A DNA stretch of 64,000 bases from a virus. Below are positions 24,423-40,427 of this stretch, piece by piece. The position numbers and the translations under genes were made by a program. Below the pieces are notes generated by a model. The model did no database searches, was not told the DNA's origin, and was given only the letters and a program-made list of their open reading frames with translations. The first letter of the stretch is position 1; every line of letters begins with the position of its first letter. The DNA lies in the IMG/VR virus record IMGVR_UViG_3300039106_000244, positions 53,016 through 117,015 of that record; one strand, given 5' to 3'.

Positions 24423-25439
24423 ATGGCAAATTTATTTAAAAAAGCAGCGATTCTGACTGACGTGCATTTTGGCTTAAAGTCAAATAGTCAAACACATAAT
24501 GATGATTGTTTAAACTTTGTTAAGTGGTTTATTAGCAAAGCTAAAGAAGAAGGTTGTGATGTTTGCTTTATGTTAGGTGACTGGCATAATAATCGAGCGG
24601 CAATTAATATCATCACGTTAAACTACAGTCTAACAGCGTTAGAGTTGTTGGGCAAAGCGTTTGAACGTGTTATATTCATTCCGGGCAATCACGACCTATA
24701 CTATAGAGATAAGCGTGATATACAGTCAGCTGAGTGGGCGCGACATATTCCTAACATCGAAATTATCAATGACTTCTATCAAGAGGGTGATGTAAGCATA
24801 GTCCCTTGGCTAGTAGGTGACGATCATAAGAAGATACAAAAGATTAATGCAAAATATATGTTTGGGCACTTTGAGTTACCGGGCTACTATATGAACGCCA
24901 TGGTGCAGATGCCAGAACACGGTGAAATCAGACGTGAAGACTTTGGACACATTGATCATGTCTATAGCGGACACTTCCATAAACGTCAAACTGGTAAGAA
25001 CATTACCTACGTTGGTAATGCATTCCCACACAACTATGCAGACGCAGGTGATGACGAACGTGGCATGATGATATTAGAGTGGGGCAATGAGCCAACGTTT
25101 CATGCCTGGCCTGACCAACCAAAGTATCGTGTGTATACATTAAGTGGTATACTGCAAAACCCGGATACTTTATTGCAAAAGGGCATGCACTGTCGAGTAA
25201 ACATTGATGTGGATATTTCATACGAAGAAGCAACCTTTATTAAAGAAACATTTGTAGGTACATACAATTTGCGTGAGCTTACACTAATACCAGTTAAGCA
25301 TACCGATGTTGGTACAGATATTATGCTAGGTAATATTCAATTCGAAAGTATCGATACTATCGTAACAAGTCAACTAACAGCTATTAATAGTGATCATTAT
25401 AATCCAGTATTGTTATTAGATATCTATAGGAATCTATGA
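24423..25439 (+). CDS. Recombination endonuclease subunit, T4 gp47 (Mre11/SbcD-like)
   Basis: Metallophosphoesterase motifs DVHFG, GDWH, GNHD, GHFE, SGHFH. Confidence 0.92.
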   Translation: MANLFKKAAILTDVHFGLKSNSQTHNDDCLNFVKWFISKAKEEGCDVCFMLGDWHNNRAAINIITLNYSLTALELLGKAFERVIFIPGNHDLYYRDKRDIQSAEWARHIPNIEIINDFYQEGDVSIVPWLVGDDHKKIQKINAKYMFGHFELPGYYMNAMVQMPEHGEIRREDFGHIDHVYSGHFHKRQTGKNITYVGNAFPHNYADAGDDERGMMILEWGNEPTFHAWPDQPKYRVYTLSGILQNPDTLLQKGMHCRVNIDVDISYEEATFIKETFVGTYNLRELTLIPVKHTDVGTDIMLGNIQFESIDTIVTSQLTAINSDHYNPVLLLDIYRNL

Positions 25440-26146
25440 AGATATATGCAAATGGTTGTAGTTTTACCTACGGAGATGATTTAATCTCACCATTGCAATC
25501 TGCATGGCCATCTTTATTAGCCGATAAATTAAGTGGAATAATTACAAACGATGCAGTTAGCGGTGGTACAAATAGTAGAACTATGTATCGTACAATTAAA
25601 AATATCCAATATGATTACGATTTATACTTAATTGCATGGACTACATATTCAAGATTTACATTTTATAAAAGCGATAATAATTTTGAAACAAATTTTAATC
25701 CACAGTTAATACATCGTTTATATTCAAATAAACATTTTTACACAACATGGGGTAATACATTATATAAACATTGGTATAATGAATTATACGCCTTTAAATT
25801 ATGGTTGCAACAAATTATACAGCTACAATCATTATTAAGTAATAAAAATTATATCATGATTAATACTATGAATAATAATATCGCGAGATGGACTGTTGAT
25901 AAAGAATTATTCAATGAATCAGTTAAGTCATTGATTAATTTTGATATTATGAAAGATGAACAAATACTTGCTGAATTTGAAGAAATACAATATTATATAA
26001 GTATCATAGATTTTTCTAAGTTTTACAAATGGAACGGATTCTATATAACCCAATTATGTTCACAATTTAAGTGCGGTCCCACTGGACACATATTAGAAGA
26101 TGGACATGCTCATTTAGCGGAATTAATATACAAACATGTCATTTAA
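25436..26146 (+). CDS. Hypothetical protein, SGNH/GDSL-hydrolase-like
   Basis: IYANGCSFTYG (block I-like), NDAVSGGTN, C-terminal GHILEDGH; very AT-rich; overlaps both neighbours. Confidence 0.55.
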   Translation: MKIYANGCSFTYGDDLISPLQSAWPSLLADKLSGIITNDAVSGGTNSRTMYRTIKNIQYDYDLYLIAWTTYSRFTFYKSDNNFETNFNPQLIHRLYSNKHFYTTWGNTLYKHWYNELYAFKLWLQQIIQLQSLLSNKNYIMINTMNNNIARWTVDKELFNESVKSLINFDIMKDEQILAEFEEIQYYISIIDFSKFYKWNGFYITQLCSQFKCGPTGHILEDGHAHLAELIYKHVI

Positions 26147-27963: not shown

Positions 27964-28149
27964 ATGTCAATTCATGAAGAAATTTTGGCGGCAGTAGAAT
28001 TATACGTTTCAGAATCAGAAAAATTTGAAGTTAAGGGTGTTAAGGCTGCAGCGGCACGTGCTCGTGGTGCATTAGGCGATTTAGGTAAGTTAACTAAAGC
28101 TCGTCGTGCAGAAATTCAAGACAAGAAAAATAGTTTAGCTGCAAAATAA
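27964..28149 (+). CDS. Small basic histone H1-like (Hc1-type) DNA-binding protein, putative
   Basis: 61 aa, EKFEVKGVKAAAARARGALGDLGKLTKARRAEIQ; strong SD AAGGAG; TTAAATA late motif upstream. Confidence 0.6.
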   Translation: MSIHEEILAAVELYVSESEKFEVKGVKAAAARARGALGDLGKLTKARRAEIQDKKNSLAAK

Positions 28150-28156
28150 ATAACGT

Positions 28157-28597
28157 ATGACATACGAATTTCCCTGGATCTATAATGGTACACTTTTTGA
28201 TTCAGGGGATATCGGTGAATATTACGGCTTCATTTATAGAATAACAAATCTCACAAACGGACACGATTACGTGGGCCGCAAATATTTTAAAACTATTAAA
28301 AAAAGACCACCATTAAAAGGCAAGAAGAACAAACGTCTAGAAACAATCGAAACTGATTGGAAAGATTATTGGGGTTCATCAAGTCGGTTAGTAGCAGATA
28401 TATTAGAACTAGGCAAGGAACAGTTTAAACGCGAAATTATACATCTATGTAGCAGTCGCGGAGAAACTAATTATATGGAAGCGCATTATCAATTTAAGGA
28501 AGAAGTACTGTTAAGAGAAGATAACTATAATGGTATTATACAACTTAAACTAGGTAAAAACTCCGTTAAAGATGTAAAGATTAATAAAACTAGTTGA
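28157..28597 (+). CDS. GIY-YIG family nuclease (T4 endonuclease II/DenA-like)
   Basis: GFIYRITNLTNGHDYVGRK (GIY-YIG variant), DWKDYWGSS, E...YNGII. Confidence 0.75.
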   Translation: MTYEFPWIYNGTLFDSGDIGEYYGFIYRITNLTNGHDYVGRKYFKTIKKRPPLKGKKNKRLETIETDWKDYWGSSSRLVADILELGKEQFKREIIHLCSSRGETNYMEAHYQFKEEVLLREDNYNGIIQLKLGKNSVKDVKINKTS

Positions 28598-28622
28598 CCA
28601 ATAACATTAAACGTATTACAAT
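28594..28622 (+). promoter_or_regulatory. Sigma70-type promoter firing into the non-coding region
   Basis: TTGACC-N17-TACAAT, overlapping the stop of the nuclease gene. Confidence 0.65.
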
Positions 28623-28628
28623 AAACAC

Positions 28629-29192
28629 ATATCTCTCAGACACCAAGTCATTCTCATAGAAACAAATTCCAACTCCGTAGTAAAGTAGTAAATGTTTTAA
28701 CAGCCCTATTGCAGATTAAGTTCTGTATTCAGAGGAGATCTCGGTCGCATAATGGCCCCGAGTGGAACGTGTAGACTAGACTACACACTGAATGGCGAAT
28801 TGGTATTGTGCTATAAAAAGCGAATCAACAATATAAAAATTAGGTGTAAAAACCAAATGATTTGGGCACTGTGAAAAAGATACAACCCATATGATGACAT
28901 AGTTTGGCTAACTACGGATTATGCATCAACCGTCGTAATAAAGCAAGAGTAGGGAGTACAGGGCGACCGCTTCCGTGTAAATGAATATAATCTCTTTTAG
29001 TTAGTGTGATGAAGCACTCGGATGAAGTGATCTGTTACATTTTACCTCGGATAGGTAAAGTGTGACTATAATCTGGATGAAGCAGTTCTAAAGTCAAAAG
29101 CGAAACAGTAATATTAAAGTAATTTAAATTAATTAGATTAGAAAAAAAAGCATTGAGCGACAGCGAAATGCAGATGTCGTTAGACATCTTTT
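28629..29192 (+). ncRNA. Candidate large structured non-coding RNA of unknown class
   Basis: About 620 nt with no ORF of 60 aa or more in a gene-dense genome; own promoter; many stems with G-U pairs, a long-range closing helix and a possible pseudoknot; terminal hairpin AGATGTC-GTTA-GACATCT followed by Ts. Confidence 0.55.
29142..29192. terminator. Tandem hairpins, possible bidirectional terminator
   Basis: A8 tract, then GCATT..AATGC hairpin (29150-29171) and perfect AGATGTC/GACATCT hairpin (29172-29189) followed by T run; lies between convergent transcription units. Confidence 0.45.
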
Positions 29193-29222
29193 AAGGATAA
29201 GATACAATATAGTCTTTTGCTC

Positions 29223-30023
29223 TTATAATGACTTTGATAACTTAGCTAATTTCTTACGTAATTTAGATTCTTGTATAGCTTTTATATGTGCTGCTGACTT
29301 TGGTTTACGCATCTTTTGTTTTGTTTCTTCTGACTTTGGTTTACGCATCTTTTGTTTTGTTTCTTCTGACATAGCACCTTTACTAACTCCTTTATTTGCT
29401 AAACTTAATTTAGCCTTATGTTCAGTAGATTTTGCAGTTGTTCCTTTACCACTACGATTAGCTGATATTTTAGTTGCAATAACTAATTTTTCTTCTAAAG
29501 TTTTTTCCTTCCTATTAAGTTGTGCAATACTCATACGTTCTTTCTGTTCCGCTGTTCTTTTTTTGCCTATACAAGATGTACTACGTTTATCTATAGTTTC
29601 TTGCGAATGTACTCTTCCTTTTCCTGCTGTAGATATTTTAGCTTTCTGTTCCGCTGACATAGTGCGACCTGTAAGTCTAGCAGAATGTATTTTACTAAAT
29701 TCTTCTTTAAGATTGGCAAATACACGACTGGTAATTTTAGTAATATATCGTTCTTGTTGATGAGTGCGTGATACACGTCGCATACCATTTAATGCATATA
29801 TCATTTTTTCACGATTGCTACCTGTTGTTATTTTAATCAACAACCAGTGACATATAAAATGCTCGCGCCCTGACAAATGAACAAGATTATTCTTGCTATC
29901 TTGTCCTCCGATTGATTTTGGTATGATGTGATGTTTTTCACTGTAAGAAAGCGGGGTTGATCTCAATTGCGCATTACTGACAATTGCATCATACCACCGC
30001 TTGTATTTGTTTTCGATAAACAT
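29223..30023 (-). CDS. Free-standing HNH homing endonuclease with NUMOD3 DNA-binding repeats
   Basis: EKHHIIPKSIGGQDSKNNLVHLSGREHFICHWLL (HNH); repeated (H)S-x-E-x-K-x-K-[IM]-S NUMOD3-like motifs. Confidence 0.85.
   Translation of the reverse strand: MFIENKYKRWYDAIVSNAQLRSTPLSYSEKHHIIPKSIGGQDSKNNLVHLSGREHFICHWLLIKITTGSNREKMIYALNGMRRVSRTHQQERYITKITSRVFANLKEEFSKIHSARLTGRTMSAEQKAKISTAGKGRVHSQETIDKRSTSCIGKKRTAEQKERMSIAQLNRKEKTLEEKLVIATKISANRSGKGTTAKSTEHKAKLSLANKGVSKGAMSEETKQKMRKPKSEETKQKMRKPKSAAHIKAIQESKLRKKLAKLSKSL
29294..29370. repeat. Perfect 36-bp tandem duplication (2.1 copies) in the HNH gene
   Basis: ctgactttggtttacgcatcttttgttttgtttctt x2, encoding SEETKQKMRKPK twice. Confidence 0.9.
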
Positions 30024-30081
30024 ATAAATCTCCTATATGTTTATTTATCTGCTTTACTTAAAAATGTGGATTACTTATGTT

Positions 30082-30318
30082 TTAGAAAAACGGGAGGCCA
30101 CTTTTTTTGGTCGTTTCCATGTTCTCTTTAATTATTTTTGATACTAATTCTCGTTCTTGCTGACTTAACATCATTGCATCTTCGTAACTTATTCCTCCTC
30201 GCATATACCAGGAAATTCGCAACGCATCATCTTTATAGGCCCTTATCTCTTTTTCGTAGCCTGCTAATAGCTCTACGATTGCATCGTTATCTAGTGCTAA
30301 GAGCCTACTGCGAAAAAA
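30082..30318 (-). CDS. gp51-like baseplate/tail assembly ORF, probably the -1 frameshift extension of the gp26-like gene
   Basis: Not in the ORF track. FFRSRLLALDNDAIVELLAGYEKEIRAYKDDALRISWYMRGGISYEDAMMLSQQERELVSKIIKENMETTKKSGLPFF*; frame opens just before the T TTT TTC heptamer and has no start codon in its 5' part. Confidence 0.65.
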   Translation of the reverse strand, partial: FFRSRLLALDNDAIVELLAGYEKEIRAYKDDALRISWYMRGGISYEDAMMLSQQERELVSKIIKENMETTKKSGLPFF

Positions 30319-40353: not shown

Positions 40354-40427
40354 TGGTGCGTTAGGTGGGATTCAAACCCACTATCTTCGGCTTTAGAGAC
40401 CGTTGCTAGTCGTATAGCTTCTAACGC
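40354..40427 (-). tRNA. Atypical tRNA with CUA anticodon (amber suppressor)
   Basis: GCGTTAG-AA-GCTA TACGAC TAGC-A-ACGGT CTCTAAA GCCGA-AGATA-GTGGG TTTGAAT CCCAC-CTAACGC-A-CCA. Perfect 7-bp acceptor, 4-bp D and 5-bp T stems; encoded CCA; anticodon at 40394-40396. Confidence 0.85.

Follow-up and report, generated by a model that had tools for sequence, protein, structure and literature searches.

A new family of large non-coding RNAs with two predicted pseudoknots and twin loops in uncultured freshwater T4-like phages

The locus and its conserved element

The region considered here lies within a 64-kb stretch (hereinafter the window) of a 117-kb viral genome record, at the end of a rightward block of genes for gp47, gp46 and a small nuclease, which faces convergent genes (Table 1). 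A greedy cover of the window by open reading frames leaves 28598-29222 as the largest uncovered stretch, at 625 nt against 273 nt for the next. This gap shows no coding signature. No ORF of 40 aa or more is conserved, and the longest stop-free stretch in any frame has a median of 60 aa in 43 relatives. Gap runs number 740, 278 and 167 for length mod 3 = 1, 2 and 0, respectively, while the variable columns are spread as 108, 111 and 106 of 166 per phase. Reading TAG as sense, a possibility prompted by a tRNA with a CUA anticodon, does not open a frame either.

Instead, the gap holds a conserved element of about 490 nt, which nhmmer profile searches recovered in 316 of 318 fetched loci (196 of 198 viral and 120 of 120 metagenomic). 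As far as searched, the family is confined to contigs of uncultured freshwater T4-like phages, and it marks a lineage of these phages with no cultured representative in the GenBank phage set searched, where three divergent members retrieved nothing. The single hit of a loosened pattern in cellular genomes, in an Acidobacteriaceae MAG, is a GGGAGTA tandem repeat with no profile match and is due to chance.

The element shows a near-obligate linkage to a nuclease gene. In 175 of 180 distinct copies, fetched independently by the DNA pattern of the RNA itself, a small gene for a GIY-YIG or PDDEXK nuclease lies upstream on the same strand; in 145 of these it is directly adjacent, whereas in 30 a whole extra gene intervenes. 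The linkage survives changes of genomic neighborhood and the replacement of one nuclease fold by the other. In most relatives the RNA starts within ~10 nt of the stop codon of the nuclease gene, making co-transcription more likely than the dedicated sigma-70 promoter of the original prediction. The latter site, TTGACC-N17-TACAAT, is present with 10 of 12 matches, but 10 such sites occur in 28000-29400 against 5.2 +/- 2.3 in shuffled sequences, a count not clearly above expectation. Moreover, it lies in a spacer (28598-28697) that aligns only in close relatives and that, in some relatives, is separated from the RNA by an inserted homing-endonuclease gene. Likewise, the 3' hairpin plus T run that had been proposed as a terminator is a conserved and covarying hairpin, but a terminator scan called nothing, and a run of four or more T follows it in only 4 of 77 representatives.

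Contigs from four RNA libraries of four studies cover the element, and one of 1550 nt (depth 159.5) spans the Hc1-like gene, the GIY-YIG gene and the RNA up to 29232. However, this is only weak evidence of expression, as such contigs show presence but do not prove transcription, and give neither strand nor ends.

Table 1. Features of the RNA locus and its flanks, in window coordinates, with the support for each
Feature	Coordinates	Strand	Description	Support
Upstream nuclease gene	28157..28597	+	146 aa, GIY-YIG catalytic domain only; SegE_GIY-YIG PF19835, phrog_447	Pfam E=3.9e-36; PHROGs
Sigma-70-like hexamers	28594..28622	+	Possible promoter	Not conserved across the family
Structured RNA	28700..29190	+	Whole conserved element	414-566 nt in 43 main-group relatives
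5' domain	28703..28796	+	Multibranch junction: P1 28703-05/28794-96; P1a hairpin 28712-15/28722-25; P2 28727-32/28788-93; P3 28740-44/28758-62; conserved UGGAAC linker; P4 28769-74/28781-86	96.5-100% paired, with 1, 2, 5, 5 and 5 pairs changed on both sides; differs in distant subgroups
P5	28803..28836	+	Optional hairpin insertion, only in close relatives of the window	Columns gapped in most sequences
P6	28843..28854	+	Hairpin GGU GUAAAA ACC	98.4% paired, 2 of 3 pairs compensatory
P7, P7a	28862..28890	+	P7 28862-66/28886-90 with inner 2-bp P7a 28870-71/28883-84	4 of 5 and 1 of 2 pairs compensatory
P8	28892..28928	+	Hairpin; loop (28905-28916) forms PK1	9 of 11 pairs compensatory; 79.7% paired, with the alignment shifted in the middle
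PK1 5' strand	28908..28914	+	CUAACUA, pairs with 28998-29004	See text
PK2 (P9) 5' strand	28932..28936	+	GUCGU, pairs with 28963-67 inside the P10 loop	See text
Px, P10, P11	28945..28996	+	Px AAGAG 28945-49/CUCUU 28992-96, enclosing P10 (28952-56/28970-74, loop holding PK2 3' strand 28963-67) and P11 (28976-79/28986-89, variable-length hairpin)	Px invariant; P10 GGGAG/CUUCC versus GGGGG/CCUCC in 18 versus 25 of 43, 1 of 5 pairs compensatory and the rest invariant; P11 3 of 4 compensatory, 60-nt insertion in one relative (L010)
PK1 3' strand	28998..29004	+	UAGUUAG	99.7% paired
P12, R1	29013..29033	+	Hairpin whose loop is R1 (29016-29027, ACUCGGAUGAAG)	Stem varies in register but is present in every sequence inspected
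P13	29034..29066	+	14-bp hairpin	97.8% paired, 2 pairs compensatory, 7 changed on one side through G-U
R2	29071..29082	+	AUCUGGAUGAAG, twin of R1; first 8 nt form a wobble palindrome	See text
AU-rich segment	29083..29149	+	Variable in length and sequence, ending in a purine tract (AGAAAAAAAA)	Nearly absent in the distant GIY-YIG subgroup
P14	29150..29171	+	Hairpin GCAUU-GA-GC-GNNA-GC-GA-AAUGC	4 of 5 and 1 of 2 pairs compensatory
P15	29172..29189	+	3'-terminal hairpin AGAUGUC GUUA GACAUCU, followed here by UUUU	100% paired, 3 of 7 pairs compensatory; 3 G-C pairs
Convergent HNH/NUMOD3 homing-endonuclease gene	29223..30023	-	An insertion relative to at least one relative	Pfam and PHROGs; a contig in an RNA library joins 29232 to 30082, skipping 849 nt

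Covariation and the predicted fold

Single-sequence folding is only mildly better than that of shuffles (z = -1.86 on the + strand and +0.24 on the - strand), and RNAalifold run on the raw MAFFT alignment gave a partly wrong fold that missed one of the pseudoknots (PK2). Hence, we constructed a model of 102 pairs manually and checked it by counting across 43 sequences. In this model 94.8% of cells are paired, against 31-43% when partners are slid; 56 pairs show compensatory changes on both sides, against 12-18; and the score is 0.337, against 0.058 or less, with 0 of 500 shuffles as high. G-U pairs, such as U-G in 40/43 and G-U in 43/43, fix the strand as +. The resulting architecture comprises a 5' multibranch domain, a compact core locked by two pseudoknots and a 3' part that presents two loops, R1 and R2, on either side of a 14-bp hairpin, followed by two terminal hairpins.

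Both pseudoknots covary. For PK1 (GCTAACTA/TAGTTAGT), 76 of 77 representatives have a Watson-Crick run of 5 or more in 30 distinct duplexes, with a mean of 7.4 for own partners against 4.8 for swapped ones. For PK2, a run of 5 or more is seen in 40 of 77 own pairs against 4% of swapped pairs, with the duplex variants GUCGU/GCGAC, GUCAG/CUGAC, GUUGAC/GUCAAC, GUUGUU/GACAAC, GUUGG/CCAAC and GUCAU/AUGAC.

The core of the original prediction, that of a large structured non-coding RNA on the + strand which is not RNase P, tmRNA or a group I/II intron, is supported, although the conserved RNA is about 490 nt rather than about 560 nt. Of the pairings it proposed, TATTCAG/CTGAATG (5 of 6 pairs compensatory), CTCGG/CCGAG (5 of 5), GTGTAG/CTACAC (5 of 6), the P8, P10 and P13 hairpins and PK1 are borne out, whereas AAGAG/CTCTT is invariant and so cannot be tested by covariation. 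The long-range CAGATTA/TAATCTG pairing is not supported: CAGA pairs locally with TCTG, and that hairpin covaries while the 3' partner is invariant. Of the three GATGAAG copies it noted, those at 29021 and 29076 are the conserved twin motif, but the one at 29008 is seen only in close relatives.

Twin loops and known RNA families

A feature of the family is that R1, the loop of a hairpin whose stem covaries, and R2, which sits in a loop or junction, carry identical 7-mers in at least 170 of 180 unique sequences, across 13 or more variants. Their positions are among the top mutual-information pairs of the whole alignment, agreeing in 57/57, 57/57 and 55/57 sequences at the three variable positions in the main group, and the tree requires at least 12 independent joint changes per variable site. 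We know of no described RNA family with this pattern. No complementary partner was found in cis or in the genome record: no complement of the loop 7-9-mers recurs at any place in the loci (113 extra hits against about 87 expected for 7-mers in 710 kb), no Watson-Crick plus G-U complement of the 6-mer reaches 15% of 153 sequences at any position within +-330 nt, and the 117-kb record holds one chance-level complement. Pairing of R1 or R2 with each other, with the invariant AAUCUCUU linker or with AGAG can also be rejected, as deep variants (GUCG, GACG, AUGG) do not keep these pairings while the supposed partners stay invariant. Readings of the motif as a K-turn or C/D-box, hammerhead, CsrA site or promoter were likewise rejected, since the G/A variation affects positions that are probably essential to those motifs.

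Searches with the 4227 models of Rfam 15 yielded only a tRNA at 40357-40427 in the whole window, and, at E<=10, only two snoRNA-like chance hits (E = 2 and 6.5) in 28400-29400, where ARAGORN also found 0 genes. The one connection to a known family is with the 141-nt Polynucleobacter-1 motif (RF01718), a candidate cis-regulatory RNA from Burkholderiales of fresh water or estuaries (Weinberg et al., 2010; PMC2864571), which slightly reduces the novelty of the family. It matches the 5' domain, directly 5' of the conserved core, of two distant members, L174 (38.5 bits) and L090 (39.2 bits), against a gathering score of 37. These are 2 of the 32 relatives' loci scanned, or 2 of 33 sources with the window; the other 30 members examined and the window itself score no hit, the latter even at E<=10. 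The 5' domain of the window does share with the motif a UGGAA linker between two hairpins, but RF01718 covers at most a quarter of the RNA and none of the double-pseudoknot core or the twin loops.

In its ornate fold and phage origin the RNA recalls ROOL (RF03087) and GOLLD (RF01998), but it matches neither model, and is tied to a nuclease gene rather than to tRNA genes, as those RNAs appear to be. The omega-RNAs/HEARO of IscB and TnpB are also structured RNAs encoded next to a nuclease gene, with short segments that vary between elements; here, however, there is no IscB, TnpB or Cas-type protein, the nucleases being GIY-YIG or PDDEXK_15, there is no match to HEARO, and the variable parts are two identical internal loops as opposed to one terminal guide. 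The phi29 pRNA, to which no homology was found, likely uses loops that covary between phages for intermolecular contacts, but those would be complementary to each other rather than identical. Large, intricately folded non-coding RNAs without a known function are rare, and each found so far (OLE, GOLLD, ROOL, raiA) has opened a line of structural and functional work.

Possible functions

While we are nearly certain that this is a real structured RNA gene of a new family, its function is not shown, and the mechanism we favor remains tentative. We infer that the RNA is made as the 3' part of the nuclease-gene transcript, or from a promoter just upstream, and persists as a stable RNA protected by its 3' hairpins. 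The pseudoknotted core would act as a rigid scaffold displaying R1 and R2, which have the same sequence in each phage but differ between phages. Accordingly, we posit that the RNA binds two copies of one partner, or one two-fold symmetric partner, through these loops, with base pairing to a nucleic acid that varies between hosts or phages seeming most likely. On this reading it would be a bivalent trans-acting decoy, sponge or scaffold used during infection. The lack of a complement in cis or in the genome record points to a partner outside the RNA, though none has been identified. However, identity at G/A positions is stricter than Watson-Crick or G-U pairing to a common partner would demand, so another constraint, such as symmetric tertiary or quaternary contacts, may be at work, and the linkage to the nuclease gene could instead mean a cis role or a protein partner.

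Several alternatives, each of which we consider unlikely, bear on the latter points. A cis-acting 3'-UTR element that stabilizes, terminates or processes the nuclease mRNA, or controls how much nuclease is made, would be in keeping with the closeness of the RNA to the nuclease stop codon, its place at the end of the transcription unit and the RNA-library contig spanning both. Yet, about 490 nt with two pseudoknots is far more than such stabilizers or terminators need, the core is better conserved than the upstream protein, which is even replaced by an unrelated fold, an extra gene intervenes in the 30 copies noted above, and the identity of R1 and R2 is left unexplained. Further, homologous GIY-YIG genes in Melnitz and cyanophages lack any such element, the Melnitz and P-HM2 loci having neither a comparable gap nor a profile hit. 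The RNA might alternatively be a cofactor that recruits the adjacent nuclease, with R1 and R2 as two identical guide-like specificity loops for a dimeric or two-site cut. The tightness of the linkage, the catalytic domain at residues 7-123 of the 146-aa protein with no recognizable DNA-binding domain, and loops that vary between phages while staying identical within each are compatible with this. On the other hand, close homologs of the nuclease exist without the RNA, two unrelated folds sharing one RNA partner would be unusual, the variable part of the loops is only about 4-7 nt, no complementary target was found in 117 kb of the phage, and a limited literature search found no report of such a system. 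A still more speculative and improbable extension, not excluded by the evidence, is a two-part system in which the scaffold directs or tethers a minimal GIY-YIG or PD-(D/E)XK nuclease, or another dimeric effector, to a two-fold symmetric or duplicated nucleic-acid target, as a bivalent, loop-programmed RNA-guided nuclease of lytic phages unrelated to CRISPR, OMEGA or TIGR systems.

It is similarly doubtful that the RNA self-assembles in the manner of ROOL or GOLLD, which form RNA-only complexes (bioRxiv 10.1101/2024.12.08.627333). Its size, fold, phage origin and lack of a protein-like partner motif resemble those of ROOL and GOLLD, and the 8-nt wobble palindrome of R2 (AUCURGAU) might mediate symmetric contacts between copies, which the identity of R1 and R2 would then reflect; but R1 is not palindromic, the palindrome is lost in the deep variants, and pairing of R1 against R2 would favor G at R2 position 5, where A is as common. 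A degenerate or unusual ribozyme or intron, whether group I-like or self-processing with R1 and R2 as equivalent cleavage or ligation sites releasing the 55-nt R1-P13 segment (29016-29070), is very unlikely. Although the size, the double pseudoknot and the neighboring homing-endonuclease genes are reminiscent of phage group I introns, and the twin sites flank a discrete hairpin, no intron or ribozyme model matches even at E<=10, the flanks are complete genes on opposite strands rather than an interrupted host gene, and no relative lacks the element in a way that would mark exon junctions. Equally improbable is a mainly DNA-level element, such as a replication origin, iteron-like protein-binding repeats or a conserved target beside which homing endonucleases park. 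Direct repeats that evolve in concert, here 55 bp apart from start to start, are typical of iterons, but there are only two of them, and the compensatory changes and strand-specific G-U pairs show selection on an RNA fold. Homing-endonuclease genes do cluster here, with the HNH gene downstream in the window and a NUMOD3 protein inserted upstream of the RNA in two of the relatives (L010 and L031), but such clustering is expected beside any highly conserved gene and needs no DNA function for the element.

Genomic setting, conservation and comparison with known families

The window is part of a 117-kb virus record that is 33% complete by the source's estimate. Its genes are T4-like and include those for SbcD/gp47-like and SbcC/gp46-like proteins, a T4 baseplate-hub protein and a gp20 portal, the last of which is at most 49% identical to any GenBank phage, the best being that of Agrobacterium phage Atu_ph07. 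A greedy ORF cover leaves a single stretch of 625 nt as the largest uncovered part, the next being 273 nt. It is bounded on the left by a gene for a 146-aa GIY-YIG nuclease (SegE_GIY-YIG, E = 3.9e-36) and on the right by a convergent HNH/NUMOD3 homing-endonuclease gene. Using the GIY-YIG protein as bait, we fetched 80 viral loci, in which blastn showed the intergenic DNA to be conserved at 69-95% identity. In the more distant loci only query positions ~105-605 align, starting right after the nuclease stop codon. Degenerate patterns of 31 nt or 30 nt from the best-conserved stretch were also used to search for the element, and an nhmmer profile of it hits 196 of 198 viral loci, 120 of 120 metagenome loci and 316 of 318 overall.

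The 43 main-group representatives, which are under 95% identical to each other, are 414-566 nt long and show no coding signature. The longest stop-free stretch in any frame has a median of 60 aa, gap runs are mostly not multiples of three (740, 278 and 167 for length mod 3 = 1, 2 and 0), and variable columns are evenly spread over the three phases (108, 111 and 106 of 166). A tRNA gene lying elsewhere in the window (Rfam 49.7 bits, not reported by ARAGORN) has an anticodon loop reading CUCUAAA, such that the anticodon is CUA, an amber-suppressor type. Hence, we also read TAG as sense, but no frame opens, and the genes that we looked at are open under the standard code.

Coordinates of the features discussed
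Feature	Source	Position	Strand
ORF with weak DUF6071 match (236 aa)	window	25436-26146	+
Hc1 histone H1-like ORF (61 aa)	window	27964-28149	+
GIY-YIG nuclease gene	window	28157-28597	+
Largest uncovered stretch	window	28598-29222	
Part aligning in the more distant loci	window	~28700-29200	
5' multibranch domain (P1, P1a, P2, P3, P4)	window	28703-28796	+
Pseudoknot PK1, partner of the P8 loop	window	28998-29004	+
Pseudoknot PK2, 5' strand	window	28932-36	+
Pseudoknot PK2, 3' strand inside the P10 loop	window	28963-67	+
Loop R1, in P12	window	29016-27	+
Loop R2	window	29071-82	+
HNH/NUMOD3 homing-endonuclease gene	window	29223-30023	-
36-nt tandem duplication within the HNH/NUMOD3 gene	window	about 29290-29361	
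tRNA gene, anticodon CUA	window	40357-40427	-
NUMOD3 protein gene inserted upstream of the RNA	relative's locus L010	4552-5250	
NUMOD3 protein gene inserted upstream of the RNA	relative's locus L031	4442-5155	
RF01718 hit	relative's locus L174	1955-2086	
RF01718 hit	relative's locus L090	9817-9956	
Insertion within P11	L010/L011	alignment columns 314-376	

Rfam 15 gives no match to the element in the window, either at gathering scores or at E<=10, and ARAGORN finds nothing. Scanning 12 and then 20 relatives' loci at gathering scores gave two hits overlapping the RNA, both to RF01718 (Polynucleobacter-1, 141 nt). These lie on the 5' domain of the RNA in the relatives L174 (38.5 bits) and L090 (39.2 bits), just above the gathering score of 37, and each is directly upstream of the conserved core. 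Thus, a fragment of one distant subgroup has been in Rfam since 2010, listed as a candidate cis-regulatory RNA of Burkholderiales and fresh water or estuary (Weinberg et al., 2010; PMC2864571). The two hits suggest that the Rfam family is a fragment of a longer RNA. Three divergent members (the window and the relatives L195 and L174) find nothing in 50,697 GenBank phage records by blastn. Likewise, the 30-nt core pattern finds nothing in one genome each of 185,579 prokaryote species, and the one stretch found by a loosened pattern is a GGGAGTA repeat with no profile match, hence chance. Literature searches for structured RNAs with GIY-YIG, for GOLLD/ROOL-like classes, for Polynucleobacter-1 and for RNA-guided GIY-YIG, judged from listings and selected passages (PMC9602691; PMC2864571), returned nothing describing this RNA.

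A covarying fold with two pseudoknots

We built a model of the fold by eye from compensatory changes, a pair-scan and mutual information, and then counted its support on an alignment of 43 sequences. Of 4354 cells, 94.8% form standard pairs, against 31-43% when the 3' partners are slid by 1-3 columns. Of 102 pairs, 56 are changed on both sides, against 12-18 when slid, and the covariation score is 0.337, against 0.058 or less when slid. None of 500 shuffles reached the observed paired percentage, double-change counts or covariation score, although one further measure, further standard pair types, was reached by 18 of 500. While the derivation of the model from these same sequences favours it in terms of cells paired, the compensatory counts do not depend on that. 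Many positions alternate through G-U, which is incompatible with the opposite strand, so the RNA is read from the + strand.

The 5' multibranch domain is followed by an optional hairpin, P5, and then by P6, P7 and P8, the loop of which forms the pseudoknot PK1. The second pseudoknot, PK2, is formed with the loop of P10, and is followed by P11; an invariant AAGAG/CUCUU closing helix (Px), which covariation cannot test, encloses P10 and P11. Beyond these are P12 with its loop R1, the 14-bp P13, R2, a variable AU-rich stretch, P14 with a GNNA loop flanked by tandem G-A, and the terminal hairpin P15. P11 tolerates insertions of about 60 nt in the relatives L010 and L011, and also in L174 and L182, and is accordingly a variable-length arm of the RNA. 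In 77 representatives that include the distant subgroups, PK1 has a Watson-Crick run of 5 or more in 76, as 30 different duplexes, with a mean run of 7.4 against 4.8 when partners are swapped between sequences. PK2 shows the duplexes GUCGU/GCGAC, GUCAG/CUGAC, GUUGAC/GUCAAC, GUUGUU/GACAAC, GUUGG/CCAAC and GUCAU/AUGAC, with runs of 5 or more in 40 of 77 own pairs against 4% of swapped pairs, though one large subgroup has a C-A mismatch (31 of 43 at one pair).

Most of the pairings in the original prediction are right. However, the long-range CAGATTA/TAATCTG pairing that it proposed is not supported, as CAGA pairs locally with UCUG and that hairpin covaries. The promoter that it proposed exists as a pattern (10 of 12 matches), but such patterns are not clearly enriched here (10 found against 5.2 +/- 2.3 expected). 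Moreover, it lies in a ~100-nt spacer that only close relatives have, and in five relatives (L010, L011, L012, L027 and L028) an inserted gene of about 0.8 kb separates that spacer from the RNA. As for the hairpin plus T run that it took as the end of the region, the 3' hairpin is conserved, but a T run of 4 or more follows it in only 4 of 77 representatives, and a terminator scan calls nothing.

Twin loops and their possible role

R1 and R2 share the sequence N-A-YYY-R-G-A-U-R-A-W-G, the only fixed difference being CUC in R1 against UCU in R2. Their three common variable positions are among the highest mutual-information pairs of the alignment, and they covary as identities (GG/AA 75 of 77, GG/AA 75 of 77 and UU/AA 73 of 77) rather than as complements. 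In 57 unique main-group sequences the agreement is 57/57, 57/57 and 55/57. On a tree built without these columns, each site changed at least 12 times and the joint state changed 12-14 times, and all eight combinations of the three sites occur, each with R1 = R2. Over all loci, 170 of 180 unique 3' halves have identical 7-mers under a strict automatic rule, and at least five of the ten misses are identical by eye. There are 13 or more different 7-mers, including the deep variants GUCGAAA, AUGGGAA and ACAGAAU. Swapping of the block between phages by recombination cannot by itself make the two copies equal within each haplotype. We found no complementary segment in cis or in the 117-kb record.

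Together, these observations define a new, abundant family of large double-pseudoknotted RNAs of uncultured freshwater T4-like phages, linked to a minimal nuclease gene. We tentatively infer that this is a stable RNA that uses two equal loops to hold two copies of one partner, a possibility that we favor without regarding it as more likely than not. The identity of the loops remains unexplained and is stricter than pairing to a common partner would require at G/A sites. Of the alternatives, which are not all mutually exclusive, a cis-acting 3'-UTR element, a self-assembling multimer and an RNA cofactor or guide of the nuclease each appear unlikely, to a roughly similar degree, the first being the least so, whereas a DNA-level element and a ribozyme or intron remnant appear more improbable still.

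Linked genes and presence in RNA libraries

To avoid bias in assessing the genomic context, we counted only copies fetched by the RNA's own DNA pattern, that is, 220 distinct copies, of which 180 have 700 nt or more upstream. Of those 180, 157 have a same-strand GIY-YIG gene upstream, 18 have a PDDEXK_15 gene upstream (PF24608, E about 1e-22) and 5 have neither. In 145 of the 175 the nuclease gene is directly adjacent, while in 30 another gene lies between. The GIY-YIG proteins range from 97% down to 33% identity to that of the window, and the pair recurs in different neighborhoods: after gp46, after radical-SAM-like genes and elsewhere. However, the dependence runs one way: homologs of the nuclease at 43-49% identity in Methylophilales phage Melnitz, Prochlorococcus and Synechococcus phages and others are not followed by a comparable gap in the two records that we examined. 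The genes inserted between the small GIY-YIG gene and the RNA include one for a protein of about 232-237 aa with NUMOD3 motifs, a likely GIY-YIG-type homing endonuclease, in L010 and L031, while other relatives carry an SGNH-like ORF (L046, L049 and L073) or a radical-SAM/SPASM protein (L106) at the same place. N-termini similar to those of the ORFs in L046, L049 and L073 (xxxxGCSxxxG) occur in the ORF with a weak DUF6071 match, which sits between the gp47-like and gp46-like genes of the window and overlaps both ends by a few bases.

An index search found 15 runs holding part of the stretch, 13 of them on record as RNA, from 8 studies, mostly freshwater. Four runs from four studies were compared with the window as contigs, and all have contigs on the element at 85-99% likeness. 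While contigs show presence in an RNA library rather than transcription, strand or ends, one 1550-nt contig (depth 159.5) runs from the end of gp46 through the Hc1-like gene (PF07432, E = 4.9e-09), which lies just upstream of the GIY-YIG gene, and on through the GIY-YIG gene and the RNA to 29232, offering weak support for co-transcription.

Finally, homing-endonuclease genes gather around the RNA gene, as expected beside a very conserved sequence. In addition to the NUMOD3 genes of L010 and L031, these include the HNH gene of the window, which an RNA-library contig of a relative skips by joining 29232 to 30082, so it is a mobile insertion. This gene also holds an exact 36-nt tandem duplication, which gives the repeated peptide EETKQKMRKPKS.
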